NCBI GenBank assembly: GCA_964562805.1
Contig: CAZLUT010000004.1
Span: 1-55,012, forward strand
Direction: 5' to 3'
Origin: an uncultured bacterium
Lineage (GTDB): Bacteria; Omnitrophota; Omnitrophia; Omnitrophales; CAZLUT01
DNA length: 55,012 nucleotides
Within the stretch, counting starts at the first letter, position 1, and each line of letters opens with the position of its first letter. The position numbers and the translations under genes are program-made. This document shows positions 28 through 45,817 of this stretch, in pieces. The notes under the pieces were generated by a model. That model did no database searches. It was given only the letters and a program-made list of their open reading frames with translations, and had not been told where the DNA came from.

Positions 28-1320
28 TTAACTTAATTTTCTTGCTTTATTAACCCTTTTCCTGATTTGCAAAGAGGTTTCACCTTTGGTTTTACGTGTA
101 CCCTTCAGGTTATTGGACAGATCTTTATATTTAACTTTTGGCACTTCAATTTGAATATCAATCCGGTCAATTAAAGGTCCCGAAAGACGAGAGCGGAACT
201 GTTCAATTTGGGCTATGGTGCATCTGCAAGATCTGTGTTTTGAATTTAAATAGCCGCACTTACATGGGTTGGAAGCGCTGACCAACATAAAGCTGGCCGG
301 GAATTCTAAAGTTCCATTCACACGGGAAATGGTAATTTTTTTATCCTCTAAGGGTAGCCGTAGCGATTCTAAGGCGTCTTTTCTAAATTCACTTAGCTCA
401 TCCAAAAATAACACGCCGCGATGAGCCATGCTGACCTCGCCCGGTTTGGGCAGAGCTCCGCCGCCCACGAGACTCGCGGTTGAGAGCGTGTGGTGAGGCG
501 AGCGAAAGGGGCGCTTAAAATACGAATGATAAGTCTTGTCACTCTCATCACTGATTCCGTAAATCATAAAAACTTCAAGCGCTTCATTTTTATTTAAAAT
601 AGGCAAGATGCTGGGGACGCGTTTTGCAAGCATAGTTTTCCCGCCGCCCGGGGAACCAAGCATCAGTAAATTATGCCCGCCGCTTACAGCGGTTTCAATG
701 GCACGTTTGGCCTTGTCTTGTCCTTTCACGTCTTTAAAATCCAGACCTTCGTCGTCCAAGGGCGAGACTGTCTCGTCTTGAAAAAAAGAAAAAGAAAAAG
801 AGCCCTCATTCAGATAAGAAATCGCGTCTTTTAATGAATTAAGAGGAATGAGTTTGGGTTTTTTTGGGTTCCAATCTAAAAGCGCCGCCTCTTTTGCGTT
901 CCGGGCGGGGAAAAGAAGAATTTTTTCTTGAGTCTCTGCAAGCTTGGATGTTTGAATCAAACCTTTTACTGGCCTTAGTTTTCCATCTAAAGCTAATTCA
1001 CCTACAGCGATAATTTTATTAAGTGAATCCGGCTGTATGTGGCCTTCCTGAGCTAAAATGCACAGAGCAATCGGAAGATCAAAGAGGGGGCCTTCTTTTT
1101 TTAGATCAGCCGGCGCCAAATTTACCGTTACTTTTTTTAGTGGAAATTGAAAGCCGCTATTTTTAAGAGCGGCACGAACACGATCCTTGCTTTCCTTAAC
1201 AGCCTGGTCCGGGAGTCCGACAATTGTTAATTGAGGGATTCCGGGGTTAATATCAACTTCAACTTCTGCTGGGACAGCTTGCACACCTAAGGGTACGATA
1301 CTGGTTATATGAGTAATCAT
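28..1320 (-). CDS. comM: YifB/ComM family Mg-chelatase-like AAA+ ATPase, C-terminally truncated
   Basis: IVGLPDQAVKESKDRV, NLAPADLKKEG, Walker A GSPGGGKT, RSPHHT, GVLFLDE, NPCKCG, SGPLIDRID. Start moved to ATG 1320 (MITHITS). Ends at RVNKARKLS*, roughly 70-80 aa short of typical ComM. Confidence 0.88.
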   Translation of the reverse strand: MITHITSIVPLGVQAVPAEVEVDINPGIPQLTIVGLPDQAVKESKDRVRAALKNSGFQFPLKKVTVNLAPADLKKEGPLFDLPIALCILAQEGHIQPDSLNKIIAVGELALDGKLRPVKGLIQTSKLAETQEKILLFPARNAKEAALLDWNPKKPKLIPLNSLKDAISYLNEGSFSFSFFQDETVSPLDDEGLDFKDVKGQDKAKRAIETAVSGGHNLLMLGSPGGGKTMLAKRVPSILPILNKNEALEVFMIYGISDESDKTYHSYFKRPFRSPHHTLSTASLVGGGALPKPGEVSMAHRGVLFLDELSEFRKDALESLRLPLEDKKITISRVNGTLEFPASFMLVSASNPCKCGYLNSKHRSCRCTIAQIEQFRSRLSGPLIDRIDIQIEVPKVKYKDLSNNLKGTRKTKGETSLQIRKRVNKARKLS

Positions 1321-1432
1321 AGTAAGTAGTAATATATAATTATATTCATATAAATCAAATATTTTTTTATTATTAATCAATATTTATTCTGATCAAATAG
1401 GCAGGTCTTTTAACAATATATTACTTCCATCT

Positions 1433-1461
1433 TTGAAAAGTTATAAGGAACCTAATATAAT
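1433..1461 (+). promoter_or_regulatory. sigma70-type promoter, short-leader transcript
   Basis: TTGAAA(1433-38)-N17-TATAAT(1456-61); ATG 1472 follows 10 nt later with no SD. Confidence 0.7.
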
Positions 1462-1471
1462 CTTTTCCTTT

Positions 1472-1921
1472 ATGGAACTAATAAATGAACCTTTTAATCC
1501 GGCCCGGGGAATAATCGCGATTGTTGTATCTTGGTTTGTTGCGCAAACTGCCAAGGTGGCGACTGACTATTTCCGGAATAAAAAAATTAATGTAAAATCA
1601 TTTTTGGATACAGGCGGCATGCCAAGCAGTCACTCCGCGAGCGTTGCCTCTCTGGCAGCAGTGGTTGGTTTGTATTACGGTTTTATTTCAATACCTTTTT
1701 GTATCGCAGGAGTTTTTGCCGTGGTTATAATGTTTGATGCCGCGGGTGTCCGCCGTTCAGTTGGGAGGCAAGCCCAGATTTTAAATAAAATGGTTGAGGA
1801 TCTGGAGCATCATCAGCAGATCACTAATGATCGAGTTAAAGAGTTGTTGGGACATACACCCATTCAAGTATTTGCGGGTGCCTTTTTAGGAATAGCAGTC
1901 GCGCTTATTATTTGCGGTTAA
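1472..1921 (+). CDS. Divergent PAP2 family (DUF212) acid phosphatase-like membrane protein
   Basis: GGMPSSHSA, VIMFDAAGVRRSVGRQA and LGHTPIQV motifs. Start taken as ATG 1472 because TTG 1433 coincides with the -35 box. Confidence 0.85.
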   Translation: MELINEPFNPARGIIAIVVSWFVAQTAKVATDYFRNKKINVKSFLDTGGMPSSHSASVASLAAVVGLYYGFISIPFCIAGVFAVVIMFDAAGVRRSVGRQAQILNKMVEDLEHHQQITNDRVKELLGHTPIQVFAGAFLGIAVALIICG

Positions 1922-1930
1922 GGAGGAAAT

Positions 1931-2944
1931 ATGAAAATTCAAGTTCTAGTATTAGTCTGTCTTCTTGTTTTGGCGGTACCGGCCTTAGCCCAAGAAGTGG
2001 CTGTTATTGAAGGGTTGGAAGTAACAGTTGTTGATGAAGCTTCAGGAGATAAAGAGACTGTCGCTGAAGAGCCAGCGGCCAAAGAAGAAACATTCTTGAC
2101 GCCTGAGACGGACTCGACCGGAAAGGGTAGCGTTTTGCAAGTTTCCCTAGAAGCTGAAGAGACCGCGGGTAATGCGCCGGTTGAATCAGCGCCGCTTACA
2201 ATAGAAGAAGTAGATGTGATAAGCCCAGTTGAAGCAACGCCTTTACTTCCCTCAGCTCAGCTTTCTGAAGCGAAGCAGCTCATAGCAGCAGGCGAACTTT
2301 CGGGTGCCAAGAAAATTTTAAAAGCTACTCTAGTTAATTTAAAAGGCGACAATTATGACAAGGCACAGGATCTTTTAGCTGAAGTTAATAATAAGCTACT
2401 GTTTCAATTCGATTCTGATTTTCCCGGAGTCACTATCCATCAAGTGAAGCCCGGCGAGAGCCTTTATGTGATTGCTAAAAAATATAAAACAACCCCGGAA
2501 TTTATTGCGGTGCTTAATGGTATTAAAGGAACTGTTATTCACCCTAATCAAAAACTGCGCGTGATCACCGCACCCATTTTGATTCATGTTAGCAAATCTA
2601 AAAATCGGATGGAGGTTTATGTTGATAAAGAGATTATTCGTATCTATCCTGTAGCTACAGGACTTAACAATTCATCTCCTATTGGCGCCTTTACGATCGT
2701 AACTAAAGTTGAAAACCCAACTTGGTATAAGACGGGAGCTATTGTTCCACCGGGAAATAAAGAAAATATTTTAGGAACCCGCTGGCTTGGGTTTTCCCTG
2801 GCAGGGTTTGGAATACACGGAACAACCCTTCCGGAATCGATCGGCACCCAGTCAACAGCTGGCTGTGTTCGCATGCTCAATAAAGACGTTGAGGAGCTTT
2901 ACGCGATGGTCCCGCTCAATGCTCAGGTAACTGTTGTTGATTAA
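1931..2944 (+). CDS. Exported LysM + YkuD L,D-transpeptidase
   Basis: Signal peptide, acidic linker, LysM (HQVKPGESLYVIAKKY), YkuD motif GIHGT...STAGCVRM; SD AAGGAGG. Confidence 0.88.
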   Translation: MKIQVLVLVCLLVLAVPALAQEVAVIEGLEVTVVDEASGDKETVAEEPAAKEETFLTPETDSTGKGSVLQVSLEAEETAGNAPVESAPLTIEEVDVISPVEATPLLPSAQLSEAKQLIAAGELSGAKKILKATLVNLKGDNYDKAQDLLAEVNNKLLFQFDSDFPGVTIHQVKPGESLYVIAKKYKTTPEFIAVLNGIKGTVIHPNQKLRVITAPILIHVSKSKNRMEVYVDKEIIRIYPVATGLNNSSPIGAFTIVTKVENPTWYKTGAIVPPGNKENILGTRWLGFSLAGFGIHGTTLPESIGTQSTAGCVRMLNKDVEELYAMVPLNAQVTVVD

Positions 2945-2976
2945 TTTAAAAAAAAGTGAGTAATAGGTAAATAATA

Positions 2977-3993
2977 ATGAAAGAACAGAAAAAAGCCCCA
3001 TCCAAACTTAAACCGGTAAATATATCGCTTGGCGAGCACTCAAAAGTTATTTTAGATTTTGAACAGCCCATAGCTGAACTTGAAAAGAAAATTAAAGAGC
3101 TGAAAGATTTAACAGAAGGCGGTATGGATTTAGGTGAGGAAATCAGCACTTTGGAAGAAAAATTGCAGCAGGCTCAAAAAGATGTTTATAAAAATTTAAC
3201 CCCTTGGCAGCGGGTTCAGTTGGCCAGACACCCGGCAAGACCTTATACTCTCGACTATATCAATCTTCTAATAGAAGACTTTGTCGAAATTCATGGGGAT
3301 CGACTGTACGGTGATGATAAAGCGATTATTGCGGGGTTTGGACGCTTGGGATCTCGGCCCGTTTGTGTGATCGGGCAGCAAAAGGGAAGAGATACAAAAG
3401 AAAATTTAATGAGAATGTTCGGAAGCGCTCACCCCGAAGGTTATCGGAAAGCCCTTCGCATTATGAGGCTAGCCGAAAAATTTAATGTTCCTATTATTAC
3501 TTTTATTGACACCCCCGGTGCTTATCCCGGTCTGGGTGCCGAAGAGCGAGGGCAAGCCAATGCCATCGCTTTTAATTTGAGAGAAATGGCAGATGTCGCC
3601 TCTCCCATTGTCACGATTGTTATTGGAGAGGGAGGTTCAGGAGGAGCCTTAGGTATTGCTGTTGCTGACCGTGTTTTTGTATTAGAGAATGCTTACTATT
3701 CGGTTATTTCTCCTGAAGGGTGCGCTGCTATATTATGGAAGAGCAACGCAAAGGCCCCTGATGCTGCCGCAGCACTCAAATTAACAGCAGAAGATTTAAT
3801 AAAGCTAGGCGTTATCGATGGAATGGTAGAGGAGCCGATGGGCGGCGCTCATCATGATGCCGGATATGTTGCCGAGAAAATAAAAGAGAAAATCGAATCC
3901 GCGCTCTCAGAATTAGAAAAACTTCCAGCCGAAAAACTTCTCGAGGAAAGATACCAAAAATTTAGAAAAATGGGTGTTTTTCACGAAAAATAA
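2977..3993 (+). CDS. accA: Acetyl-CoA carboxylase carboxyltransferase alpha subunit
   Basis: LDFEQPIAEL, ARHPARP, FIDTPGAYPG, GEGGSGGAL, YYSVISPEGCAAILW. Confidence 0.96.
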   Translation: MKEQKKAPSKLKPVNISLGEHSKVILDFEQPIAELEKKIKELKDLTEGGMDLGEEISTLEEKLQQAQKDVYKNLTPWQRVQLARHPARPYTLDYINLLIEDFVEIHGDRLYGDDKAIIAGFGRLGSRPVCVIGQQKGRDTKENLMRMFGSAHPEGYRKALRIMRLAEKFNVPIITFIDTPGAYPGLGAEERGQANAIAFNLREMADVASPIVTIVIGEGGSGGALGIAVADRVFVLENAYYSVISPEGCAAILWKSNAKAPDAAAALKLTAEDLIKLGVIDGMVEEPMGGAHHDAGYVAEKIKEKIESALSELEKLPAEKLLEERYQKFRKMGVFHEK

Positions 3994-4056
3994 CCTTTCT
4001 TAGTCTTTCTCCGCATCTTTTTCAATATTTTTTCAAAAAAATATAATCGTCTTAAA

Positions 4057-4103
4057 ATACAATATATAGTGGTGTTTTAAATTAAAAACACTATTTGTAC
4101 TAA
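4057..4103. promoter_or_regulatory. Tandem NrdR-box-like palindromes
   Basis: ATACAATATATAGTGG (4057-72) matches acaCwAtATaTwGtgt at 14/16; a weaker copy ACACTATTTGTACTAA starts 31 nt later (4088). Confidence 0.45.
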
Positions 4104-4151
4104 TTTTAAGTTATTCACCCCTTTTCTAAATCCCAGCCTTTAAAAAAAGTG

Positions 4152-4182
4152 TTGACAAGATAGCCGTGTTATAAATTATAAT
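4152..4182 (+). promoter_or_regulatory. sigma70-type promoter with 19-nt spacer
   Basis: Perfect TTGACA (4152-57) and TATAAT (4177-82). Confidence 0.55.
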
Positions 4183-4210
4183 TTACAAAATGTAAAATAC
4201 GTTTTGTAAA
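4182..4210. promoter_or_regulatory. Inverted repeat, candidate operator over the transcription start
   Basis: TTTACAAAA-N11-TTTTGTAAA, perfect 9-bp arms. Confidence 0.45.
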
Positions 4211-4232
4211 AATGATTAAACACGAGGCTCTA

Positions 4233-6542
4233 ATGAACTTTAAAACAGTAATTAAAGGCTTCATCGTCGCATTAATCACCTTCGGTCTAATCAGCCCCTC
4301 TCCCTTCATCTCGCTGCCCATACATTCATTATTAGTTTCCGAAGCGTTTGCTGAGGAAAGCCTGATTGACCTCGAGGTTACAGCAAAAGAACAGGACGAG
4401 GAGCGGAAAAGGCTCAAAAAATCCGAGAAAGAAAAACAAAAAGCCATCAAAGAAGGAAACGTGCAGCTTTTGCCATATGGTGATGAAGATTTAAAAGAGC
4501 GAATTAAAAGGCGCGAAGAGGCAAAAAAACGGCTTGCTTATTTTAGAGAAGAGGCCAGAAAAAGAAGAGAGGCTGCAACAAAGAAAGAAAGCGAAGAGAT
4601 AAAAGTTGAAACTAAAGAAGCTGAGGAAAAAGAAGTAAAAATAAAAGAAAGAGAAGTTTCTGTTACCCCCGCGGTTTCTCAAATAAAAAAAGCAGTAAAG
4701 CCGAAAACGGTGACCCCTGAAAAAGATGTTATTCGACCAAAACCGCGTGAAGTCGTTATACGCAAAGTTACAAAAAGACCCGCCCCTATTGCGCAGCCAA
4801 CCCCTAAAAAAGCGGCTCATGTACCAATGGTGCCCGCAAAAACAGAGGGTGAAGCTTCACCAAAGAAACTTGTTACAAAAAAATCATTAACGGCCTCAGA
4901 AGAGGATGCGCTTATCAAAAAGGCCCTTGAGATTGAAAAGAAAAAACAGCAAAAACTTCTTTACGAGAAAAAACAGCTGGAAGATGAATTGTCCAAAATA
5001 GAAAAAGAAGCTAAGAAGATATCTCAAGAAGAAACCAAAAAACAAAAACAGCTGGAAAAGGCCCGTAAAGAAGAGGAAAAGCGCAAAAAAGCTATCTTGA
5101 AAGCTAAACGTAAAGAAGCTGAAAAGAAACGTAAGGCAGAGTTGAAACGCAGGAAAGAAGAAGAGAAGAAAAAGCGTAAAGAAGCCGAGCGTCAAGCTAA
5201 GGAAGAAAAGAAAAAACGGGAAACTGAGCTAAAACGTCAGAGAGAAGAAGAAAAACGAAAAAAAGCTATTCTCGAAGCTAAGCGTAAAGAAACTGAAAAA
5301 AAGCGCCAAGCGGAACTGAAGCTTAAAAAAGAACTTGAGAAGAAAAAGCGTAAAGAAGCCGAACGTCAAGCTAAGGAAGAAAAGAAAAAGCGCGGGGAGA
5401 GTGAGCCTAATTTTTTCCAAAAAGTATTTGGAATCACGCCTAAAACACCTGAACAAAAAGCCTTGGAGGCTAAACGTAAAGAAGCTGACAAGAAACACAA
5501 AGCAGCACTAAAGCGCCAGAGAGAAGAAGAAAAGAAAAAACGTGAAGCCGAATTAAAGCAGAAGAAAGAAGAAGAAAAACGAAAAAAAGCTATTCTTAAA
5601 GCTAAACGTAAAGAAGCTGAAAAGAAACGTAAGGCAGAGTTGAAACGTAAGAAAGACGAAGAGATTCCAAAACGAGCAAAGACTCTTACTGTTCCAGCTA
5701 AGCCTAACAAGAAACTTCTTAACAAGCATCTGACCCAGGCCCAAAACTCAATCGACCGGAAAGATTTTAGTGCGGCCCGCTCCTCTCTCGACAAAGCCTT
5801 GCAGCTTGACGCTCAAAACGTTATCGCGACCAATTTAATGGCAGTAGCCGTTGAGGGGGAGTTTATCGAGGATCAAAAAAGACTTCAGAATCAAAAGGTA
5901 ATTGCGGGGATGATCGAAGAAGAAAGAATGAGGGATAAGTTTTTAATGATGATGGATCGTATTGATTCCGAGATTCAAGAATTAACTCGGAAAGGCAACG
6001 CTCTTTATTCAAAAGGGAGAACCCCCGAAGCCAACCAGAAGTATCGCAAGGTAAGAGCGCTTGAAACTGAAAGACGCATGATTACTGAAAATCTTCTCGA
6101 GAGATTGGATAGAGAAGCTAAAGAATCAATGGAATCGTTATCACCCAAAGAGAAGAAAGCAAAAATTAATAATTTACTAAGACAAGCTGACATCTTAGCT
6201 AAACAAAGAAGATGGGATGAAGCGTCTGAGAAATATGAATCTGTTTTTGTGTACGATCCTCTAAACGCCCAAGCCTCCCAAGGTATTGATTATTTAAAAA
6301 AGCGTTTTATAAAACAGGAGAAAGAAAGAAAAGAATCGGCAGCCAAAGCTTTGGATGAAGATTTTGAAAATCGGATAAAGTTTTATGTTGAACAAGCTAA
6401 AACCGCTTTAGCTCAAGACGAAACGCATAAGGCCAATGTACTAATCGGTAGAGCTCTTGCTTTAGACCCAAAAAATCGAGAAGCCAAGAAATTATTAAAA
6501 CGTGCGCTAGAAGAAGGAGAAAAAAATAGGTATGAAACGTGA
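4233..6542 (+). CDS. Exported or membrane-anchored K/E/R-rich coiled-coil (TolA-like) protein with C-terminal TPR-like repeats
   Basis: Hydrophobic N-terminus ending AFAEE; long charged repeats; TPR-like helices (AARSSLDKALQLDAQN, YESVFVYDPLNAQA, RALALDPKNREA). ATG 4233 has a GAGG SD; the ORF track start is 4212. Confidence 0.7.
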   Translation: MNFKTVIKGFIVALITFGLISPSPFISLPIHSLLVSEAFAEESLIDLEVTAKEQDEERKRLKKSEKEKQKAIKEGNVQLLPYGDEDLKERIKRREEAKKRLAYFREEARKRREAATKKESEEIKVETKEAEEKEVKIKEREVSVTPAVSQIKKAVKPKTVTPEKDVIRPKPREVVIRKVTKRPAPIAQPTPKKAAHVPMVPAKTEGEASPKKLVTKKSLTASEEDALIKKALEIEKKKQQKLLYEKKQLEDELSKIEKEAKKISQEETKKQKQLEKARKEEEKRKKAILKAKRKEAEKKRKAELKRRKEEEKKKRKEAERQAKEEKKKRETELKRQREEEKRKKAILEAKRKETEKKRQAELKLKKELEKKKRKEAERQAKEEKKKRGESEPNFFQKVFGITPKTPEQKALEAKRKEADKKHKAALKRQREEEKKKREAELKQKKEEEKRKKAILKAKRKEAEKKRKAELKRKKDEEIPKRAKTLTVPAKPNKKLLNKHLTQAQNSIDRKDFSAARSSLDKALQLDAQNVIATNLMAVAVEGEFIEDQKRLQNQKVIAGMIEEERMRDKFLMMMDRIDSEIQELTRKGNALYSKGRTPEANQKYRKVRALETERRMITENLLERLDREAKESMESLSPKEKKAKINNLLRQADILAKQRRWDEASEKYESVFVYDPLNAQASQGIDYLKKRFIKQEKERKESAAKALDEDFENRIKFYVEQAKTALAQDETHKANVLIGRALALDPKNREAKKLLKRALEEGEKNRYET
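5100..5647 (+). repeat. Intragenic direct repeats encoding charged helical units
   Basis: 50-bp exact repeat AAAGCTAAACGTAAAGAAGCTGAAAAGAAACGTAAGGCAGAGTTGAAACG at 5100-5149 and 5598-5647; a second near-exact ~50-bp pair (KKKRKEAERQAKEEKKKR) near 5165 and 5340. Confidence 0.85.
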
Positions 6543-6762
6543 AAAGTTTTACAAGATAGGGGAAGTGATGCAGCATACGGGCCTATCTCGCCAAACCATT
6601 CACAACTATACCGTAGCCGGTCTCATTTCAGAGAAGACAAGAACGCCTTCGGGACATCGCTACTATGATGAGAATGTGTTTGATAGGTTAGAAAAGATAA
6701 AAATTTTACAAAAAAAGAATTATACCTTAACCCAAATAAAAAAAATTTTAGAAAACGAATAA
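6532..6762 (+). CDS. Stand-alone MerR-family HTH regulator (76 aa, no effector domain)
   Basis: YKIGEVMQHTGLSRQTIHNY...GLI...RTPSGHRYY; overlaps the upstream stop by 11 nt. Confidence 0.85.
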   Translation: MKREKFYKIGEVMQHTGLSRQTIHNYTVAGLISEKTRTPSGHRYYDENVFDRLEKIKILQKKNYTLTQIKKILENE

Positions 6763-6797
6763 CGGATTTATTTTTTTATATATAAAGGAGGGAAATT

Positions 6798-7577
6798 ATG
6801 AAAGACGTCTTAAAGCTTTGGAGACGATACAAACGAGTAGGTTCTGAAAGCTTGCGCGAAGACTTAATTAAACGCTATCTTTATCTGGTTAAATTTGTAG
6901 CTGGAAGGGTTGCTGTTGGCCTTCCCTCAAATGTTGAGTTTGGAGACCTGGTAAGCTATGGGATTCTGGGTCTTTTAGACGCTATTGAAAAATATGACCC
7001 TGAGCAAGGGAATAAATTTGAAACTTACGGGGTTTCTCGCATTCGAGGCGCCATTATGGATGAGCTTCGAAAGTTGGATTGGGCGCCGCGCTTGCTTCGT
7101 AAGAAAGCCCGCGATGCGGAAAAGAAAGTAAGAGAGCTTGAGGAAAGGTACGGCAGGCCCGCGACTGATGAAGAATTAGCTGACAGTCTGGGCGTCTCAG
7201 TCGAAGAGATTGGGAACCTGTATCAAGCCGTCAGCTCTGCCTCATTTCTTCCTCTGGATGAGATGTGGGAAAATGAAGATGGTAATAAACCGATGAGCCG
7301 GCTTCAGTTGGTGCCGGACGCTCTGAGCCAAGACCAAATGGATGGGATTCAGAAGAATGAAGTCAGAGAACTTATCGCAAGCGCTATCGAAGAGCTTCCT
7401 GAGAAGGAAAAGCTCGTTGTAGTGCTTTATTACTACGAAAATTTAACACTCAAAGAAATCGGAGCAGTGTTAAACGTTTCTGAATCTCGCGTATGTCAAA
7501 TTCACAGTAAAGTAATGCTGAGACTGCGCTCCCATTTTAGAAAGATTGGCGAAGAACAGGCATTGGTTGCCGTTTAG
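6798..7577 (+). CDS. fliA: FliA/WhiG family (sigma-28) RNA polymerase sigma factor
   Basis: DLVSYGILGLLDAIEKYDP, FETYGVSRIRGAIMDELRKLDW, LYYYENLTLKEIGAVLNVSESRVCQIH; SD AAGGAGG. Confidence 0.92.
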   Translation: MKDVLKLWRRYKRVGSESLREDLIKRYLYLVKFVAGRVAVGLPSNVEFGDLVSYGILGLLDAIEKYDPEQGNKFETYGVSRIRGAIMDELRKLDWAPRLLRKKARDAEKKVRELEERYGRPATDEELADSLGVSVEEIGNLYQAVSSASFLPLDEMWENEDGNKPMSRLQLVPDALSQDQMDGIQKNEVRELIASAIEELPEKEKLVVVLYYYENLTLKEIGAVLNVSESRVCQIHSKVMLRLRSHFRKIGEEQALVAV

Positions 7578-7612
7578 GCGTATATCTTTTAATCCGTTTT
7601 TCCTTCCTTTTT

Positions 7613-7642
7613 GGTGAGGAAGCTCGGGAGAGCTTTCTCACC
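7613..7642. terminator. 13-bp hairpin between fliA and the sigma-28 promoter
   Basis: GGTGAGGAAGCTC-GGGA-GAGCTTTCTCACC with one G.U pair; the downstream U tract is weak. Confidence 0.4.
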
Positions 7643-7669
7643 TAAAGTTTTCTTATTCGTTACCGATAC
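7643..7669 (+). promoter_or_regulatory. sigma-28 promoter
   Basis: TAAAGTTT(7643-50)-N11-ACCGATAC(7662-69) versus consensus TAAAGTTT-N11-GCCGATAA. Confidence 0.8.
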
Positions 7670-7730
7670 TAAGACTAAAAGGTAACTTCCGAAAATGAAT
7701 CCTCGGAAACAGAAAAAATCAAGGACTTGT

Positions 7731-7898
7731 ATGAAGCAAATTTTGGCTTGGCTTGAGGAGACCCCCAGCCCTAATGAGGGCCGCATCAAAGAACTTAAGG
7801 ATATGATTAAAAGAGGCCGATATCCTTCCAGAAAGATTATCGATTCAACCGCGGATGAGTTGATCGCGAGGTTTAGAGGTAAGAAAAAAGCTCTCTAA
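7731..7898 (+). CDS. Minimal FlgM-like anti-sigma-28 factor (55 aa)
   Basis: RIKELKDMIKRGRY...IIDSTADELI resembles the FlgM C-terminal sigma-binding helices; SD AAGGA before ATG 7731; adjacent to fliA with its own sigma-28 promoter. Confidence 0.65.
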   Translation: MKQILAWLEETPSPNEGRIKELKDMIKRGRYPSRKIIDSTADELIARFRGKKKAL

Positions 7899-7905
7899 TT
7901 TTGTC

Positions 7906-9171
7906 TTAGGCAACCTGAGGTAATAGATCGCCTTTTTCCGCCCATCTTTGGATGGCCGGTAATGTCATAAATTTTTTCCAGATTTTCCCGTCAATAAAAT
8001 TTTCAATCATAAGCACTGTGATTCCCTGATCAATGGCAATATATTCTTTAGAAAACCACTTTTTCCCCAAATTGTAACTGTCAGTGAACCCATAACGGGT
8101 AAAAATTTTATCTTTCATTTGCCACATATTCCGGGTCGCGTCCAAAGATTCTTGTGGTGTAAAAGGTAAAGAGCCGATAGCTCCTGAGGGCGCAATGGTT
8201 CCATCACTTCGGCATTTATTGCCGCAAGGAGGAGCTCCGTAAGCCACGTAACCGGCGGGCCCCAGGCAAGCGGTTAGGCCCCAAGATGTCTTATAACCCG
8301 GGTATTGGTCAGAGCCGGCAAGCGAAAATTCTTTATTCGCAAGACTTGCGTTGATTGAGTTAGTAAAATAATTAATTCCATCATCGTTTAAGCTCCTGAA
8401 ATCAATAAAAGCGTGTGAATATTGGTAAGTAAAAAGAGAGCCCGAAAAGGCATAAACAATTTCTTTACCTTCGTAGTTATCCTTTGTCCTTCTCCACTCT
8501 TTCCAAACTTCTGTGCTGGTGGGATTGCGGCTAGCGCCCAAGGAAAGCGCCTGTAAAATTAAATGCTCACTGTACATATCCCAGTAATGGGGCAGAAACC
8601 CCCGCTCAGGTTTCCAGCCATGACTAATCATGTAACGATTGTTGGTCATCCACTCCCAATCAACGCGCTTATAAATCTGGTTAGCCAATCGCTCAATTTC
8701 AGTATCTTTAAAAACCTGACCCACGTAAAGAGCGCCCGCAATAAAAAGTGCTGTGTCAATCGAGGAAGCTTCAGAAGCCCAGGCTCGTCTGGCTGTTTTA
8801 GGGTTTAAAAAATGGTAAAAGAAACCGTTTTTATGTTCAGCTCTTTTTAAAGCGGTATGGAGGGTTTGCCGGGCTCTTTTGTAGGCCTCACTGTGGCTTA
8901 ACCAGCCGTTTTCTTTGGCAATTCCTAAGCCGGCTAAATAAAAGCCGGTTGCGGCAATTGAGGCGGGCGAGCCTGGCTGGCTGGAGTCTCGAGTAAGACC
9001 TGTTGAGCTGTCTGTAAAATCTAGGAAAAATTGAAAAGAATTGCGGGAAATTTTAGAGAGCATTTTATAGTCTTCGCCCGAAATTTTAAGGGCAAAGCCG
9101 GAAGCAGAAAACGCAAAACAAATAGCCGAAAAAACAATAAAAAGGAAGAGCGAGGTTTTGAGAAACCTCAT
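7906..9171 (-). CDS. Exported glucoamylase-like (DUF3131/GH144-type) glycoside hydrolase
   Basis: Signal peptide; SIAATGF, NGFFYHF, SSIDTALF, GSLFTYQYSH, YGFTDSYN, IDQGI. Confidence 0.78.
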   Translation of the reverse strand: MRFLKTSLFLFIVFSAICFAFSASGFALKISGEDYKMLSKISRNSFQFFLDFTDSSTGLTRDSSQPGSPASIAATGFYLAGLGIAKENGWLSHSEAYKRARQTLHTALKRAEHKNGFFYHFLNPKTARRAWASEASSIDTALFIAGALYVGQVFKDTEIERLANQIYKRVDWEWMTNNRYMISHGWKPERGFLPHYWDMYSEHLILQALSLGASRNPTSTEVWKEWRRTKDNYEGKEIVYAFSGSLFTYQYSHAFIDFRSLNDDGINYFTNSINASLANKEFSLAGSDQYPGYKTSWGLTACLGPAGYVAYGAPPCGNKCRSDGTIAPSGAIGSLPFTPQESLDATRNMWQMKDKIFTRYGFTDSYNLGKKWFSKEYIAIDQGITVLMIENFIDGKIWKKFMTLPAIQRWAEKGDLLPQVA

Positions 9172-9836
9172 TTTGATGTCTTGAATCTGGAAAGAATTTT
9201 TTCCAGCAAACCTTTCGAGTTATCGGGGCCTGTGCTTGCTATTTCAGCAGCTTTGTTCTTGAGGGTTCCGATGTCTTCATCGAGGGAGGTAGCCATTTCA
9301 TTAAAACTTTTCGAAAGCCACTGCGCCTCATCTTTCTTTCTTAAATGAGCGCGAGTCGTGAGATCTCCATTTTTTATTTTCTTAAAGCATTGATCAAATC
9401 GATATAGAGGCCCCGCGATTTTGTGCGACAGAAAAATAGTGCCCCACGCAATAAATACCAGGAGGGGAATCAGATAAATCAAAAGTTTTTGGTTGGTGCG
9501 GTAGAGTATTTCTTGAAAAACTTCCCGCTCTTTTTGGCTTAGGAGCTCAGTTTCTTTAATGAATTTTAGAGCAGCGCCCGATGTTTCATCACCGGTTTCA
9601 ATAGCCCGCGCTTTTTCATATTGGAAAATACGGTTAGCAACGATGAGTTGATTGCGAATCCCCTCGTTGGAAAGCTCTTTTAAAACAGAGCCCCAAATTC
9701 CGAAATACATGCTGGCTAAAGAGGCGCCCATAACTACCAAGAGAATGATTACAATTTGAAACATATAGCGCAATTGAAAAGCGCGATTGATGAAAAAATG
9801 TTTTCGCACGTGCGATTTTTGAGAAGCCTCAGTCAT
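9168..9836 (-). CDS. Two-TM HAMP-domain membrane protein without an output domain
   Basis: HFFINRAFQLRY N-terminus, two TM helices, SHKIAGPLYRF...GDL...LRKKDE...FNEM. Confidence 0.72.
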   Translation of the reverse strand: MTEASQKSHVRKHFFINRAFQLRYMFQIVIILLVVMGASLASMYFGIWGSVLKELSNEGIRNQLIVANRIFQYEKARAIETGDETSGAALKFIKETELLSQKEREVFQEILYRTNQKLLIYLIPLLVFIAWGTIFLSHKIAGPLYRFDQCFKKIKNGDLTTRAHLRKKDEAQWLSKSFNEMATSLDEDIGTLKNKAAEIASTGPDNSKGLLEKILSRFKTSK

Positions 9837-9926
9837 GCGGGAATTATAGCGAAACTTTTAAAAAATGTCTTCTCTTCTCTCCATTTTCTACCATCACTCA
9901 AGCCCACATCTGACCGATTAAGAACT

Positions 9927-9954
9927 TTGAAAATTTTTGTAACTTTGATAGTAT
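9927..9954 (+). promoter_or_regulatory. Extended -10 promoter of glmS
   Basis: TTGAAA-N16-TAGTAT with TG at 9946-47; ATG 9 nt downstream, no SD. Confidence 0.45.
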
Positions 9955-9963
9955 CACTCAATC

Positions 9964-11802
9964 ATGTGCGGAATTGTTGGTTATATCGGTAATCGTAAAC
10001 TCATACCCTTATTGGTAGATGGGTTGGGCCGCTTGGAGTATCGCGGATATGATTCGAGCGGCATTGCTTTTTTGGACGAAAAAAAAGGCAATATTACCTG
10101 TTTTAAAGAAAAAGGAAAACTTGCAGCCCTTAAAGCGGAACTTGCCGGTGTTTCAGGCGCCGGAGCCGTTGGAATTGGACATACTCGCTGGGCTACTCAC
10201 GGATCACCCTCTAAGGTCAATGCCCACCCTCATCTGGATGAGAACCGAGAATTTGCGGTGGTTCAAAATGGAATTGTTGAGAATTATGCTGAGCTTAAAG
10301 AAGAGCTTATCCGCAAAGGACACAAATTTGCTTCAGAGACCGATACTGAAGTTTTAGTCCACTTACTCGAAGACAATTACCACGGAGATTTTTTAAAAGC
10401 CTTTCGTAAGTCTATCCAAAAACTCCAGGGCTTTTTTGTTTTTGCCGCCATTTCAAAACGCGATCCTGATATGCTTCTGGCTTTTCGCCGTTCAAACCCT
10501 CTGGTGATAGGTCTTGGTAAAAATGAAAATTTTTTAGCGAGTGACGTGGCCCCGCTCTTAACTTATACAAAACGCGTTATTTACCCTGAAGATGATCAGG
10601 TGGTGATGGTCCGCAAGAAGCGGGTTGATATTTTTGAGCTGTCTACCGGCAACTCGGTTCGAAAAAAGACAGTGAACGTCAAATGGAATATTGAACAGGC
10701 GGAAAAAGACGGTTATCCGCACTTTATGCTTAAAGAGATTTATGAACAGCCAATGGTTGCAGCGCAAACCCTGGCAAAGGATACTAAGAATAAAGAGCAT
10801 ATTGTATTCGAGGGTTTGGATAAGAAAGCTGAAGATATGATTCGTAAGGCGCGCAAAATATTTGCGGTCAGTTGCGGTACAGCCTATCACGCCTGTATGG
10901 TAGGTAAATATTTGACAGAGGATTTTGTTCGAATGCCGGTCGAGTGCTGGGTTTCAAGCGAGTTTCGTTATGCGGACCCTATTATTAATTCCAAAGACTT
11001 GGTTATCTTGATTACTCAATCCGGTGAGACAGCAGATACGCTGGCCGCTCTACGAGAGGCGCGCGCTAAAGGCGCTTATATTATTGCTATCTGCAATGTT
11101 GTGGGCAGCACGATTGCCAGGGAATCCGATGTTGCTCTCTATACTCATGCCGGCCCCGAAATTGGAGTAGCTTCGACTAAAGCCTATATTTCCCAATTAC
11201 TGTGCATGACCTTGCTAAGCCTTCAGATCGCAAAAATTCGTCAGAAAATCGATCCTGTAACTTTAAGGAAGCATTTAAAAACAATCCAAACGTTGCCCGC
11301 CGCCATCAAAAAAACTCTTAAGAGTGATCGGCAAATTAAAAGAGTTGCTAAGAAATTAGCTAAAAGCAAAAACTACCTTTATTTGGCAAGAGGTTACAAT
11401 TACCCAACAGCCTTAGAGGGAACCCTTAAATTGCAGGAAATATCCTATGTTCATGCTCATGGATATGCAGCAGGAGAGATGAAACATGGTCCAATCGCTT
11501 TGGTCGATAAGAAGCTGCCCGTCATTTGCATTTGCCCCCAATCAGTAACTTATGAAAAGATGGCTTCAAACGTTGAAGAAATTAAAGCAAGAAACGGCAT
11601 CCTGGTAACAGTTGTTTCAGAAAAAGACGCTCATATCAAAAAGCACTCTGATTATTCTTTTGAAATTCCAAAGGTTCCTGAATACCTATCGCCTATTTTA
11701 ACTATCATCCCACTTCAGCTGATGGCTTATTACATAGCTGTTTTTAAAAATTGCGATATTGATCAACCTCGAAATCTCGCTAAATCCGTAACAGTCGAAT
11801 AA
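9964..11802 (+). CDS. glmS: Glutamine--fructose-6-phosphate aminotransferase
   Basis: MCGIVG, RGYDSSG, GHTRWATHG, SQSGETADT-like motif, GEMKHGP, PRNLAKSVTVE. Confidence 0.97.
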   Translation: MCGIVGYIGNRKLIPLLVDGLGRLEYRGYDSSGIAFLDEKKGNITCFKEKGKLAALKAELAGVSGAGAVGIGHTRWATHGSPSKVNAHPHLDENREFAVVQNGIVENYAELKEELIRKGHKFASETDTEVLVHLLEDNYHGDFLKAFRKSIQKLQGFFVFAAISKRDPDMLLAFRRSNPLVIGLGKNENFLASDVAPLLTYTKRVIYPEDDQVVMVRKKRVDIFELSTGNSVRKKTVNVKWNIEQAEKDGYPHFMLKEIYEQPMVAAQTLAKDTKNKEHIVFEGLDKKAEDMIRKARKIFAVSCGTAYHACMVGKYLTEDFVRMPVECWVSSEFRYADPIINSKDLVILITQSGETADTLAALREARAKGAYIIAICNVVGSTIARESDVALYTHAGPEIGVASTKAYISQLLCMTLLSLQIAKIRQKIDPVTLRKHLKTIQTLPAAIKKTLKSDRQIKRVAKKLAKSKNYLYLARGYNYPTALEGTLKLQEISYVHAHGYAAGEMKHGPIALVDKKLPVICICPQSVTYEKMASNVEEIKARNGILVTVVSEKDAHIKKHSDYSFEIPKVPEYLSPILTIIPLQLMAYYIAVFKNCDIDQPRNLAKSVTVE

Positions 11803-11810
11803 ACCCCTCA

Positions 11811-11842
11811 TACTAACCACTACCAACTAACTACTAACCACT
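11811..11842. repeat. Degenerate heptamer array (TAACCAC family)
   Basis: tac-TAACCAC-TACCAAC-TAACTAC-TAACCAC directly after the glmS stop. Confidence 0.7.
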
Positions 11843-11861
11843 TAAAACCGGAGGTTTTATT

Positions 11862-12035
11862 ATGGCTAAGAAACTAAAAAAAATGTCTCGATCTAAAGTG
11901 AAGACTTTTAAAATTAAAAATCGCAAAGGTTATGCCGCCATTTGCATGAATAATCTAACCGAAGGCCCCTCAAGCGCTGAAGCCGTAAGACGCATGGCAA
12001 AAGCTGTAAAAAGACAAGGTTATCTTTTAGCTTAG
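11862..12035 (+). CDS. Small basic hypothetical protein (57 aa), absent from the ORF track
   Basis: SD GGAGG at 11850-54; translates MAKKLKKMSRSKVKTFKIKNRKGYAAICMNNLTEGPSSAEAVRRMAKAVKRQGYLLA*. Confidence 0.72.
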   Translation: MAKKLKKMSRSKVKTFKIKNRKGYAAICMNNLTEGPSSAEAVRRMAKAVKRQGYLLA

Positions 12036-12162
12036 AGCTACTCGATTTTAATCTTAAAAAAAATAAAAAAAAGCTTGGCGAATTAAATCATATCAGTATA
12101 TTAGCTACCCTTTTGTCATAATAAGATTTTTAACTCCGGTAATAAGGAACTAAATATAAAAA

Positions 12163-12179
12163 TTGGCATGTTTTGTGCT
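12163..12179 (+). promoter_or_regulatory. sigma-54 (-24/-12) promoter candidate for gltBD
   Basis: TTGGCATGTTTTGTGCT: GG(12165-66)-N10-GC(12177-78), 58 nt before the gltB ATG. Confidence 0.55.
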
Positions 12180-12237
12180 TAGTATAAGGTGGAAAGGTCT
12201 ACCTTTTTTAGGGTATTAAGGTAAAAACAGGTAAAAA

Positions 12238-15200
12238 ATGAACAACCTCTATAGTAAAAAACAAGGCTTATACGACCCCCGGACCGAACATGATGCCTGT
12301 GGCGTTGGTTTTGTGGCTCACATTAAAGGCGAAAAAAGCCACAAAATTGTAAGAAACTCTATTGAGATTCTCGAAAATCTGGAGCATCGGGGTGCTTGCG
12401 GCTCAGACCCAAAAACAGGAGATGGGGCTGGAGTGCTTATTCAGTTGCCTGATAGTTTTTTCCGGAAAGTTTGTCCTGAGCTCAAAATAGAGCTTCCCGG
12501 CATGGGCGAATATGGCGCGGGCCTTATCTTTCTTCCAACCTTGCCTGATGAAAGAAATCAATGTGAAGAATGGTTTGAACATGTTACGAGAGAAGAGGGA
12601 CAAAAGTTCCTGGGCTGGCGTTCTGTTCCGCATAATTCAAGCGAGATAGGACATGTGGCTCATTCGGTAGAACCTGAATTAAAGCAAATTTTTATTGCCC
12701 GAGGCAAAAACACCAAAGATCAGAACGCTTTTGAGCGCAAACTTTTCGTAATCCGTAAACGGATCGAGAAAAAAGTGCGCGAATCCCATTTGATGCAAAA
12801 AGATTATTTTTACACCTGTAGCCTTTCGAGCCGAACTTTTGTGTATAAAGGTCAATTGATGGCAACTCAATTGGATCGGTTTTATCCTGATTTGGCCGAT
12901 GAAGATATGGTTTCAGCTATTGCAATGGTTCATTCCCGCTATAGCACGAACACTTTCCCGACCTGGTCATTGGCACACCCGTACCGGGTAATGGCCCATA
13001 ATGGCGAAATTAATACGCTAAGAGGCAATATTAATTGGATGCATGCGCGAGAAATGCAGTTTGTGAGTGAGCTTTTTGGTGATGATATTGAAAAAATCCG
13101 ACCTGTCATAACTCCGGACGGAAGTGATTCAGCCACCTTTGACAATGCGCTAGAAATGCTGGTTGCTTGCGGGCGCTCGCTTCCTCATGCCGTTATGATG
13201 ATGGTTCCTGAGGCATGGAGCGGGCATGAGAGTATGGATGAAAGTAAAAAAGCTTTTTATGAGTATCATTCTTGTTTGATGGAACCATGGGACGGTCCGG
13301 CTTCCATTGGCTTTACGGACGGCCGTTACATAGGAGCTGTTTTAGACCGCAACGGGCTTAGACCCTCTCGTTTCTGGGTTACAAAGGATGATTTTGTCGT
13401 TATGGGTTCAGAGGCCGGAGTGTTAGCAATTCCTCAAGACAATATTTTAAAAAAAGGGCGTCTCCAGCCGGGAAAAATGTTTTTGGTCGATACCGAAGAG
13501 GGCAGAATTGTTGATGACGCGGAATTAAAACAGGATTATTCAACCCGCAAGCCATACGGGGAGTGGGTGAAAAAAAATATTGTTACTTTTGACGATCTTC
13601 CCAAGCCCAAAAAAATAGAGGGTCTCAATAAAGAAAAGCTTCTTGAAAGACAAGTTGCTTTTGGTTACACCTTAGAGGATATTAAATTTTTGATTCAGCC
13701 GGTTGCTTCAGAAGGTCAGGAAGCCACCGGTTCAATGGGAGCTGACAATCCATTAGCGGTCCTTTCAAATAAGCCGCAGCTTCTTTTTAATTACTTCAAG
13801 CAGCTTTTTGCTCAAGTAACAAATCCGCCGGTGGACCCGATCCGTGAAGAAATTATTATGTCAATGGATATGATGTTGGGCTCAGAACAAAATCTTTTAG
13901 AAGAAACTCCGAGGCATGCGAGACGCTTAAGAGTTTTTGAAACCATTCTTTCAAATGAAGAGTTAGAAAAAATTTGTGAGCTTGATCAAGAAGGCTTAAA
14001 AACTGTTACTTTGCCTATTCTTTTTGAAAAAGAGAAAGGGTCTGGAGGACTTAGCCGAGAACTCGAATTGCTTTGTAAGAAGGCAGATGAAGCTATTGAA
14101 AAGGGCGCTACTATTCTAATTCTTTCTGATCGCGGTGTTAATTCAAGTAACGTGCCTATGCCCTCGCTTTTAGCGTGCGCGGGACTTCACCATCACTTGA
14201 TTCGTCAAGGCACCCGAACCAAGGTTAGTTTGGTTTTAGAAACAGGTGAAGCTCGTGAGATGCATCACTTTGCGGTATTGATCGGATATGGCGCTAACGC
14301 TATTAACCCCTATTTGCTTTTTGAAACAATCGAAGATGAGGTTAATAAAGGCACTTTTCCCTCACGGCTTACGGCTGATATTGTTAAAAAGAATATTGTA
14401 AAAGCTTCGCGCAAAGGGCTTTTTAAAATTATTTCTAAAATGGGGATTTCCACCATCCAATCTTATTGCGGTGCTCAAATTTTTGAAGCCGTTGGATTGG
14501 GAGAAGCGTTAATCAATAAATATTTTACAGCTACGGTTTCTCGAATTGGCGGTATTGGAATTGCTGAGGTGGCCGAGGAAATGATACGCCGCCATGAAGC
14601 GGCTTTTCCGGAGTGTGAAGTTGGAGAGCCAGCCTTGGACAACGGCGGTTATTATGCTTGGCGCCGGGACGGAGAGCACCATCAAATCAACCCCAAGGCA
14701 ATAGCTTTATTTCAGCAGGCCGTTCGTTCGGGCAATTATGAGCTTTATAAACAATATGCTGATCTAATGAATAATCACTCAAAGAATTTAGCTACCTTGA
14801 GGGGTTTGGTAAAATTCAGAAAAGGTAATCCGATCTCTATTAACGAAGTAGAGCCTGCCTCAGAAATTGTAAAACGATTCGCGACAGGTGCTATGTCTTT
14901 TGGCTCCATCTCGAGAGAAGCGCATGAAACTTTAGCAATTGCAATGAATCGTCTCAAAGGTTTTTCCAATACCGGCGAGGGAGGAGAAGACCCAAAGCGT
15001 TTCAAACCGGATTCCAACGGAGATTTAAGACGAAGCCGCATTAAGCAGGTGGCTCAGGGACGTTTTGGTGTTACGATCGAATATTTAGTCAATTCGGATC
15101 AAATGCAAATTAAAATGGCTCAAGGAGCCAAGCCTGGGGAAGGTGGCCAGCTTCCGGGACATAAGGTAAGCAAGGAGATCGCAGCTACTCGTTATACGAC

Positions 15201-16770: not shown

Positions 16771-18233
16771 TGGGTGATATTCGGGGCTTCATGCATTTTG
16801 AGCGGCAGGATTTTCAGAAAGAGCCGATTAATATCCGTTTAAAACATTGGAAAGAATTTACAAAACTTTTACCGAACGAAGAGCTTCATAAGCAAGGGGC
16901 TCGCTGCATGGATTGCGGTGTACCTTTCTGCATGGCGGGTTGTCCGATCGGTAATATTATTCCTGATTGGAATGATCTCGTTTATAAGGACAGGTGGAAG
17001 GAAGCCGTTGGCAGGCTTCACCGAACCAATAACTTCCCTGAGTTTACCGGCCGGGTCTGCCCGGCTCCTTGCGAGAACGCCTGTGTTTTATCAATCACAG
17101 AACCTGCTGTTACGATTAAAAATATTGAAGTTGCCATTGTTGAACGCGCTTACGAAGAGGGGTGGTTAAAACCAGAGCCTCCCAAGAAAAGAACAGGAAA
17201 AAAAGTAGCTGTCATCGGTTCAGGGCCTTCGGGGCTTGCCTGCGCTGACCAGCTCAATAAAGCAGGCCACGAAGTAACGGTGTATGAAAAAAATGAGGCT
17301 TTAGGCGGGCTTTTAATGCTAGGAATTCCTGATTTTAAATTAGATAAATATGTTATCGAAAGACGCGTTGAACGCATGAAGCGCGAAGGCGTTCATTTTA
17401 AAACCCGCGTTCATGTTGGAGTGGATATTTGCGCTAAAGAACTCAAGGAACAGTATGATGCCATTTGCTTGTGCGGAGGTGCTGAGACGAGAAGAGATTT
17501 ACCGGTTCCGGGCCGGGAGCTCGAAGGCGTTTACCAAGCGATGGACTTTTTACCTCAGCAAAATAGGCGCAACAATGGGTTCTCGCCTGATCCTAAATTT
17601 GATTTTATTGCTAAAGGTAAAAAAGTTGTTGTTTTGGGTGGAGGGGATACTGGTTCAGACTGTGTCGGAACCTCTAACCGCCAAGGGGCTGTCTCGGTAA
17701 AACAATTTGAGCTAATGCCGGAACTCCCTAAAGAAAGAGCTCCTGACAATCCGTGGCCGGGATGGGCTTTTATCAAAAGAATGTCCACTTCTCACGAAGA
17801 GGGCTGCGAGCAGGAATATCAAGTGATGACCAAAAAGTTTAGCGGTAAAAACGGTAAACTGGAAAAATTGCATGCTATACGCCTTGAATTCAGCCCTAAA
17901 GATCCTAAAACAGGCAGGGCTTCCATGAAAGAAATTCCGGGTTCCGAATTTGAGGTAGAAGCCGATCTCGTTATTTTAGCTATGGGTTTTACGGGCCCCG
18001 TTAAAGAAGGAATGATTAATGAATTGGGGATCTCTCTTAACGAGAGAGGTAATGTCATTACAGATGAAAACAAAATGACAAACATTCCAGGAGTTTTTGC
18101 AGCAGGTGACATGGCTCGAGGTCAGTCCCTCGTTGTTTGGGCTATTCACGAAGGGCGTAATGCGGCAAATGGTGTCGATCAGTATTTAATGGAAAAATCA
18201 GCGCTACCTAAACTTTCTTCTATAGTACTTTAA
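16770..18233 (+). CDS. gltD: Glutamate synthase small subunit
   Basis: RCMDCGVPFC, NNFPEFTGRVCPAPCE, GSGPSG, GGGDTGSDC, AAGDMARGQSLVVWAI; TAATG coupling to gltB. Confidence 0.96.
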   Translation: MGDIRGFMHFERQDFQKEPINIRLKHWKEFTKLLPNEELHKQGARCMDCGVPFCMAGCPIGNIIPDWNDLVYKDRWKEAVGRLHRTNNFPEFTGRVCPAPCENACVLSITEPAVTIKNIEVAIVERAYEEGWLKPEPPKKRTGKKVAVIGSGPSGLACADQLNKAGHEVTVYEKNEALGGLLMLGIPDFKLDKYVIERRVERMKREGVHFKTRVHVGVDICAKELKEQYDAICLCGGAETRRDLPVPGRELEGVYQAMDFLPQQNRRNNGFSPDPKFDFIAKGKKVVVLGGGDTGSDCVGTSNRQGAVSVKQFELMPELPKERAPDNPWPGWAFIKRMSTSHEEGCEQEYQVMTKKFSGKNGKLEKLHAIRLEFSPKDPKTGRASMKEIPGSEFEVEADLVILAMGFTGPVKEGMINELGISLNERGNVITDENKMTNIPGVFAAGDMARGQSLVVWAIHEGRNAANGVDQYLMEKSALPKLSSIVL

Positions 18234-45526: not shown

Positions 45527-45531
45527 ATTTT

Positions 45532-45816
45532 ATGCAATATCCGGATGAGGAAAAGCCAATCGAAGCTGAATATGAAATTGTTTCTTCAGGTAAAGAGAGG
45601 GGCCGCGATGAATTTAAGAAAAAGCCTGAATTTCAGTCGAGAAAACCTCTTCAGGCCTGGAAAGCTAAATTGTTGTTTTGGGGTGTTGTCATTGGAAGTA
45701 TTTCTTTGGTTCTTTTGCTGCTCTTTTTCTTTATTAGTCTTTTTATTTATTTTTTTGTTCCTATTATGATTATTTTGGGATGCTGGATTTTACTGAAATT
45801 TTTGGCAGGCAAATGA
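45532..45816 (+). CDS. Small membrane protein
   Basis: Charged N-terminus, long hydrophobic C-terminus; in operon context. Confidence 0.6.
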   Translation: MQYPDEEKPIEAEYEIVSSGKERGRDEFKKKPEFQSRKPLQAWKAKLLFWGVVIGSISLVLLLLFFFISLFIYFFVPIMIILGCWILLKFLAGK

Positions 45817-45817
45817 G

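Follow-up and report, generated by a model that had tools for sequence, protein, structure and literature searches.

The 55,012-nucleotide stretch analysed here (contig CAZLUT010000004.1 of assembly GCA_964562805.1; "the window" in what follows) comes from an uncultured Omnitrophota bacterium and encodes a sigma-28 factor, FliA, followed by a sigma-28-type promoter and a short gene for a truncated form of the anti-sigma factor FlgM. Comparison with related loci suggests that this FliA-FlgM pair was left at the site of a former flagellar export operon, probably in a non-flagellated organism that would free sigma-28 from FlgM by a route other than secretion. Omnitrophota are abundant, uncultured and for the most part ultra-small, with a lifestyle believed to be predatory or parasitic; to our knowledge, almost nothing is known of their gene regulation.

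The sigma factor has 259 amino acids (open reading frame, ORF, at 6798-7577, plus strand) and belongs to the FliA/WhiG family: with 280.1 bits it clears the cutoff of TIGR02479 (FliA_WhiG, 189.6), and its sigma-70 regions 2, 3 and 4 all exceed their Pfam cutoffs. Assignment to a WhiG or FliA subgroup at the equivalog level fails, the scores being 316.8 bits for the WhiG model NF004935 (cutoff 343), 235.7 bits for NF005809 (cutoff 326) and 198.4 bits for the chlamydial model NF004572 (cutoff 378). The closest sigma proteins among the matches listed carry the labels Candidatus Omnitrophica or Omnitrophota. A scan of the genome collection with the window protein gave seven loci, mostly from other phyla, and flagellar FliA proteins from Spirochaetales metagenome-assembled genomes (MAGs) are 52% identical to it.

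Downstream of fliA, the layout described in the first-pass annotation is confirmed: a hairpin (7613-7642), a near-consensus sigma-28 promoter of the form TAAAGTTT-N11-ACCGATAC (7643-7669) and the small ORF (7695-7898) follow one another on the plus strand. The hairpin, which resembles a terminator, starts 35 bases past the fliA stop, and its 13-bp stem closes a GGGA loop (-25.2 kcal/mol, z = -4.0); none of 200 shuffled versions folds as stably. A terminator scan did not call it, because no U-run follows the stem, and an Rfam search over 6300-8300 returned chance-level matches only. Some related loci, not all, have a hairpin in this gap; in four of them (L014, L030-L032) the promoter stands 20-70 nt past the fliA stop, and the gap contains no strong structure.

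The first promoter element, TAAAGTTT (7643-7650), begins at the base right after the hairpin stem and is followed by an 11-nt spacer and ACCGATAC (7662-7669). The promoter lies 65 nt 3' of the fliA stop and 25 nt 5' of the small ORF, and transcription would be expected to start near 7677. It is of the TAAA-N15-GCCGATAA type that is cognate to the FliA/WhiG family and is presumably recognised by the sigma-28 encoded beside it. Matches to a loose sigma-28 pattern are not rare by themselves (2 in the window, 0.37 expected). A position-weight matrix from the related promoters gives the site 22.7 bits, with 15.1 for the next best site in the 55 kb and 18.8 for the maximum of 30 shuffles; this score is somewhat circular, because the matrix includes the window site itself. 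Phylogenetic conservation is the stronger argument. All related loci with a readable intergenic region have TAAAGTTy, a gap of 11-12 nt and nnCGATnn before the flgM-like ORF, apart from two in which the first element is TTAAGTTC or TCAAGTTT, and the promoter is kept although the ORF behind it is only 35-63% identical to that of the window. No further sigma-28 promoter in the window rises above background, and the sole sigma-28 target visible there is flgM itself.

On sequence grounds, the small ORF is a truncated, FlgM-derived gene. It encodes 67 amino acids, or 55 from an ATG at 7731, and comprises just the FlgM domain, the N-terminal region being absent. The first-pass annotation had proposed a 55-aa FlgM-like protein, and gene callers picked the same form. 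The kinship to FlgM stands; the length probably does not, since the internal Met is replaced by Leu or Ile in relatives, which also conserve residues ahead of that position, which makes the 67-aa form the likelier product. (A short hairpin, TTCCGA…TCGGAA at 7685-7710, has the first ATG, at 7695, in its loop and could influence the choice of start codon.) A check against the FlgM model, suggested in the same annotation, finds the domain at a score below threshold: residues 13-46 align to positions 12-43 of the 55 in Pfam FlgM (PF04316), most of the domain, with 17.1 bits (cutoff 25), and TIGR03824 gives 16.2 bits (E = 0.014, cutoff 40.75). These low scores count against the anti-sigma reading, as does the only moderate confidence of a monomer model of three helices (pLDDT 68.7, pTM 0.40). 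In a profile search of solved structures FlgM appears only at E = 0.11, an uninformative match.

The protein's own scores being sub-threshold, its identity as FlgM therefore rests on its relatives. A profile built from 8 close relatives retrieved 29 representative proteins of 55-116 aa, and Pfam FlgM matches 16 of 33 aligned family members, with a best E-value of 1.1e-18. BLASTP aligns the small protein with the FlgM of the flagellar locus L029 described below (E = 1e-9, 49% identity over 37 aa, across PSPNEGRIKELKDMI / PSPNEGRINELKEAI; common motif PSPNEGRI-ELK), and that FlgM passes the Pfam cutoff with 34.6 bits. The small protein is thus homologous to threshold-passing FlgM proteins, and its gene combines a sigma-28 promoter with linkage to fliA in a conserved arrangement. 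Among the 8 relatives in its subclade, 25 of 67 columns are invariant. Across the phylum as a whole, the motif P-x-P-N-x-G-R-I-x-E-L-K is conserved, and so is the C-terminal helix.

The pair is part of a larger conserved module, which bears out the view taken at first reading that sigma factor, promoter and anti-sigma gene form a real unit. A common gene order is found at 18 independent loci (L012-L014, L016-L026, L030-L032 and the window), and the small ORF is intact in all of them. In full, the order is comM (minus strand), DUF212, LysM-YkuD, accA, a TPR-protein gene, a gene for a MerR-like protein, fliA, the small ORF and a convergent glycoamylase/HAMP pair; the shorter loci show part of it. 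The glycoamylase/HAMP pair lies 3' of flgM in all related loci that reach that far. Eleven of the loci were retrieved via the motif of the small protein, and fliA stands directly upstream in 10 of the 10 with upstream DNA. Identities to the window are 72-89% for the MerR-like protein, 66-80% for the sigma factor and 35-63% for the small protein, so that the MerR-like protein is more conserved than the neighbouring sigma factor. The available flanks of these 18 loci, up to 10 kb on each side, contain no flagellar structural genes.

Flagellated relatives point to a probable origin of the pair. L027, from an ENA metagenome, has flhA, flhF, flhG, a 98-aa membrane protein, fliA, a 109-aa ORF, DUF6115, a 262-aa ORF and a 106-aa FlgM, which lies ~2 kb 3' of fliA. 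L029 (GCA_018823795.1, labelled Omnitrophica) extends further on both sides: motB, fliL, fliN, fliO, fliP, fliQ, fliR, flhB, flhA, flhF and flhG are followed by an 83-aa ORF, fliA, a 107-aa ORF, DUF6115, a 356-aa ORF, a 104-aa FlgM, and a convergent glycoamylase and HAMP-like gene. L033 (GCA_053990915.1) reads flhA, flhF, flhG, x, fliA, y, DUF6115, z and a 104-aa FlgM. All three have a sigma-28-type promoter before flgM, as the window does. Their sigma factors are 66-67% identical to that of the window, the figure for the remaining TPR-MerR loci being 67-77%, and a neighbour-joining tree places the L027 and L029 proteins among the TPR-MerR-type ones; sigma factors of the two contexts therefore form one orthologous group. 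The idea of a paralog distinct from flagellar FliA was considered for the window sigma factor and rejected, the two contexts being intermixed at 64-83% identity.

In 5 of 5 flagellar contexts seen (L008, L027, L029, L033 and L034), fliA stands downstream of flhF-flhG, and no flhF cluster without fliA occurs among the flagellar contexts read. This order is presumably ancestral, since it is also found in L034 and in the distant Omnitrophota MAG B26_G9 (L008). The pair downstream of flgM in L029 is the same as that of the window (54% and 44% identity). By contrast with the flagellated relatives, the window locus has no flhA-flhF-flhG ahead of fliA, and the three genes between fliA and flgM, including DUF6115, are gone; conversely, the MerR-like gene is not present in L027 or L029. 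Because the flagellated relatives hold the same sigma ortholog in an export operon, and L029 also matches the window downstream of flgM, the locus is most simply explained as a flagellar locus from which the structural and export genes were deleted, with fliA and flgM left behind. The gene between flhG and fliA in the flagellated relatives (L027:5741-6037, L029:9636-9887, L033:12062-12424) encodes a hydrophobic, likely membrane protein of 83-120 aa that begins MFFLNE and is not found in the window locus. It may belong to the FlgV family, which is reported to be co-conserved with sigma-28 (PMC11607428).

The two types of locus also differ in the N-terminus of FlgM. The FlgM proteins of L027, L029 and L033 are ~48% identical overall and have in common an N-terminal MSI(G/S)QIQxDGG(V/I)NPLKD and a second segment, (D/R)(S/R)VE(L/I)S(D/E)RA. 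The N-terminal motif occurs in 0 of 12 aligned FlgM-like proteins of MerR-type loci, and likewise in none of the further ones read; these proteins are mostly 80-105 aa long, with unrelated N-termini. In the window subclade FlgM is short by ~50 N-terminal residues and has no N-terminal disordered export region, in agreement with the first-pass annotation, which had described the anti-sigma factor as lacking its usual N-terminal region. In enteric bacteria, the signal for FlgM export lies in the N-terminal segment. We infer that the MSIxQIQxDGGxNPLKD motif acts as such a signal in the flagellated Omnitrophota, and the N-terminal pattern fits its loss at the TPR-MerR loci.

It would appear, then, that the ancestral site had the form …fliPQR-flhB-flhA-flhF-flhG-x-fliA-…-flgM, that its structural and export genes were lost in the window lineage, and that fliA came to be placed behind the TPR and MerR-like genes, probably in one transcript with them. 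Sigma-28 would transcribe flgM from the promoter directly 3' of fliA, and the short FlgM would bind, sequester and inhibit sigma-28, closing a negative feedback. Sigma-28 would be freed by proteolysis, by a partner protein or by some other non-secretory route instead of flagellar type III export; such a release is the most likely one because FlgM is without the N-terminal segment conserved in the flagellated relatives. The freed sigma-28 would serve other, non-flagellar genes, in an organism most likely without a flagellum. More tentatively, FliA and FlgM (together with FliW and CsrA in one clade) may have outlived the flagellum across much of Omnitrophota, rewired with the MerR-like and TPR proteins into a non-flagellar program in which FlgM is removed by proteolysis or a partner switch. 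If so, the rewired module could run a phase of attachment or attack, to name one possibility, in these ultra-small host-dependent bacteria. The well-defined promoter motif, TAAAGTTy-N11/12-nCCGATAn, offers a practical route to a regulon in this poorly understood phylum, and flagellated and presumably non-flagellated relatives at one locus amount to a clean natural experiment on how a secretion-coupled checkpoint is rebuilt after loss of the machine.

It is somewhat more likely than not that the organism has no flagellum, as suggested by the deletion at the ancestral site, the loss of the FlgM N-terminus and the lack of any flagellar gene in 68 kb. The first-pass annotation had reported no flagellar genes nearby, and indeed a flagellar family is matched neither by any window ORF of at least 100 aa nor in 68 kb of a matching JGI contig; fliW and csrA are likewise not found in the window. 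FlhF clusters related to L027/L029 are few among the matches listed (~18), and ~117 of the 120 sigma clusters listed fall outside the flagellar-context clade by neighbour-joining position; this is weak evidence, covering the matches listed, with the context directly checked for ~20 loci. No TPR-MerR-type contig with flhF is found among the listed sigma and FlhF matches, a weak negative. Fourteen Omnitrophota MAGs from Ace Lake are reported to lack motility genes (PMC8542988). The main text of two large Omnitrophota genome surveys and of a giant-gene preprint makes no mention of flagella or sigma factors.

Several observations weigh against the loss of the flagellum. A short FlgM without the usual N-terminal region is also found in a flagellated bacterium, Helicobacter pylori. 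In a sister clade, at three TPR-MerR loci, fliW and csrA are inserted after accA and ahead of the TPR gene (L022:6857-7663, L025:2331-3138, L026:6868-7662), with Pfam scores of 110-125 bits for FliW and 88-89 bits for CsrA of L022 and L026. In L022 and L026 these genes are preceded by a sigma-28-type promoter, TCAAGTTT-N12-GACGATAa. Since fliW-csrA here adjoin the fliA-flgM module, four flagellar regulators stand together, and the 10 kb around them hold no structural genes. The usual partner of FliW is flagellin, and this clade may on that account still make flagella. The flagellar-gene negative for the window organism spans ~68 kb, and Omnitrophota genomes in the table of Seymour 2023 are mostly 1-2.5 Mb. 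Flagellated members of the phylum do exist: in the source data of the same study, the KO lists of two genomes, #58 from order B26-G9 and #231 from Velamenicoccia (order Duberdicusellales), both hold full flagellar sets including FliA and FlgM.

On a rival reading, the pair would be an ordinary flagellar regulator that has merely moved and still runs the usual late flagellar genes, with the structural operons elsewhere in the genome and the short FlgM handled by the flagellar apparatus or FlhA as in Helicobacter. We consider this unlikely, yet it is the alternative to be taken most seriously. It draws on the flagellar KO sets, one of them in Velamenicoccia, on the fliW-csrA genes at three MerR-type loci, on the closeness of the flagellated relatives' sigma factors to those of the window and the other MerR-type loci, and on the 68 kb to which inspection of the genome extends. 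Relocation is harder to reconcile with fliA being kept after flhF-flhG in all five flagellar contexts when none of the 18 TPR-MerR loci has flagellar structural genes in its available flanks. The intervening genes (107-aa ORF, DUF6115, 356-aa ORF) are gone as well, no TPR-MerR locus retains the conserved N-terminus of FlgM, and the window has neither fliW nor csrA. Among the matches listed, the small number of related FlhF clusters and the many sigma clusters outside the flagellar-context clade point the same way, weakly. Should flagellar genes lie elsewhere in the genome, the finding shrinks to an odd gene order and a short FlgM.

It is improbable that the small ORF is in decay, or has taken up an unrelated role, with no anti-sigma activity left, and that sigma-28 is controlled mainly via transcription of TPR-MerR-fliA. 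Such decay would account for the sub-threshold HMM (hidden Markov model) scores, for the loss of the N-terminal half of FlgM, and for a divergence much faster than that of the sigma factor or the MerR-like protein. A remnant would not be expected to stay intact in 18 of 18 loci, to keep its promoter wherever the intergenic region is readable, or to hold so many invariant columns in the subclade and a motif and helix conserved across the phylum; moreover, the segment retained corresponds to the larger part of the Pfam FlgM domain. A developmental sigma factor of the WhiG kind with an anti-sigma armed by a second messenger, as RsiG is by c-di-GMP in Streptomyces, in place of a FlgM-type mechanism, can be set aside as very improbable: the WhiG model is the top NCBIfam match by score and the adjoining effector-less MerR-like protein faintly resembles the BldC family, but that score is below cutoff, the partner is homologous to FlgM and not to RsiG, and the closest sigma relatives defined by context are flagellar FliA proteins of Omnitrophota and, at greater distance, of Spirochaetales MAGs.

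An orphan sigma-28/FlgM pair is less new than the first-pass annotation implied. According to the portion of PMC5655016 that cites Tlapak et al. 2017, fliA and flgM are all that non-flagellated Legionella oakridgensis (clade III) has kept; there, flgM depends on sigma-28, and FlgM acts as a negative regulator for which flagellar export is not available and which is apparently degraded. Both systems keep the two genes where the flagellar regulon is missing, certainly in Legionella and probably in Omnitrophota. The Omnitrophota case differs in belonging to another phylum and in covering a broad set of lineages (18 loci), where the Legionella one covers a single small clade; in the adjacency of fliA and flgM and the operon of fliA with TPR and effector-less MerR-like genes; in a window FlgM cut to 55-67 aa; and in having flagellated relatives whose version of the locus is still the ancestral one. 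Absence of the flagellum is known in L. oakridgensis; here the negative is limited to 68 kb. The repurposed switch proposed in that annotation is accordingly plausible and in part supported, its central idea being already known from Legionella.

Helicobacter pylori FlgM is said, in the portion of PMC5655016 that cites Rust et al. 2009, to be inactivated rather than exported. It resembles the window protein in being short and differs in working within the flagellar hierarchy of a flagellated organism. The canonical FliA-FlgM checkpoint of Salmonella, Bacillus and Aquifex is matched in the sigma-28 family, the TAAAGTTT-N11-GCCGATAA-type promoter, the sigma-28-driven flgM and the C-terminal domain of FlgM; unlike it, the window locus has no nearby hook-basal-body or export genes, and the N-terminal segment of FlgM is missing. 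Sigma-28 factors in non-flagellar programs are familiar from Chlamydia. Another case is Streptomyces WhiG, a sigma-28-family factor paired with RsiG (PMC12871210). Neither system is known to use a FlgM homologue, whereas the Omnitrophota partner is clearly FlgM-derived.

Upstream of fliA, the window encodes a TPR protein of 776 aa (4212-6542, plus strand; Pfam TPR_2 and TPR_11) and a 76-aa protein with a MerR-type helix-turn-helix (6532-6762, plus strand; Pfam MerR_1, E = 2.6e-16). The latter has no effector domain and gives a faint match to the BldC family (E = 0.0062). Since the reading frames of the TPR and MerR-like genes overlap, stop over start, and a strong ribosome-binding site precedes fliA, the three genes are probably co-transcribed, the TPR gene being the first of the putative operon. 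A perfect TTGACA and TATAAT pair upstream of the TPR gene (4152-4182) may be the operon's promoter; its spacing is 19 nt, the usual one being 16-18 nt. The matrix scan finds no sigma-28 site upstream of the operon, so no positive autoregulation is visible. The TPR protein consists of a hydrophobic N-terminal segment, K/E-rich repeats and C-terminal TPR repeats, and its size among relatives is very variable, 167-776 aa. A 174-nt tandem repeat (5069-5389; 1.8 copies, 83% matches) encodes the K/E-rich part. On the other side of the pair, the glycoamylase and HAMP-domain genes (7906-9171 and 9168-9836, minus strand; Pfam Glycoamylase and HAMP) are convergent with flgM and serve as synteny anchors.

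A second small ORF, of 65-81 aa, stands divergent from the TPR-MerR-fliA operon at several related loci, always on the minus strand (L018:1359-1556, L019:3462-3707, L020:270-512, L024:7095-7316, L030:8699-8923, L031:4041-4274, L032:8689-8898). Its product has the motif TYxxLFxLKFKxxIPTxELxxxFP…LALLELP and no Pfam match, and the window contains no homologue. A sigma-28-type promoter, TAAAGTTy-N11/12-GGCGATAG, precedes it in L018-L020 and L023-L024, with weaker GACGAnAn variants in L030-L032; in L023 the promoter and only the start of the ORF are present, at the contig edge.

The remaining genes of the window are housekeeping genes, such as glmS, gltB, glgA, the rml genes, metH and fba; a few ORFs are without a Pfam match. 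The matching JGI contig, Ga0115649_1000094 (189,864 bp), is identical to the window over the compared stretches, 143-17577 and 43088-55012. Window bases 1 to ~142 do not match it, which could reflect an assembly join or a real rearrangement. This difference explains the early end of the comM/ChlI-like gene in the window (stop at 28-30), where Ga0115649_1000094 encodes a 512-aa product.

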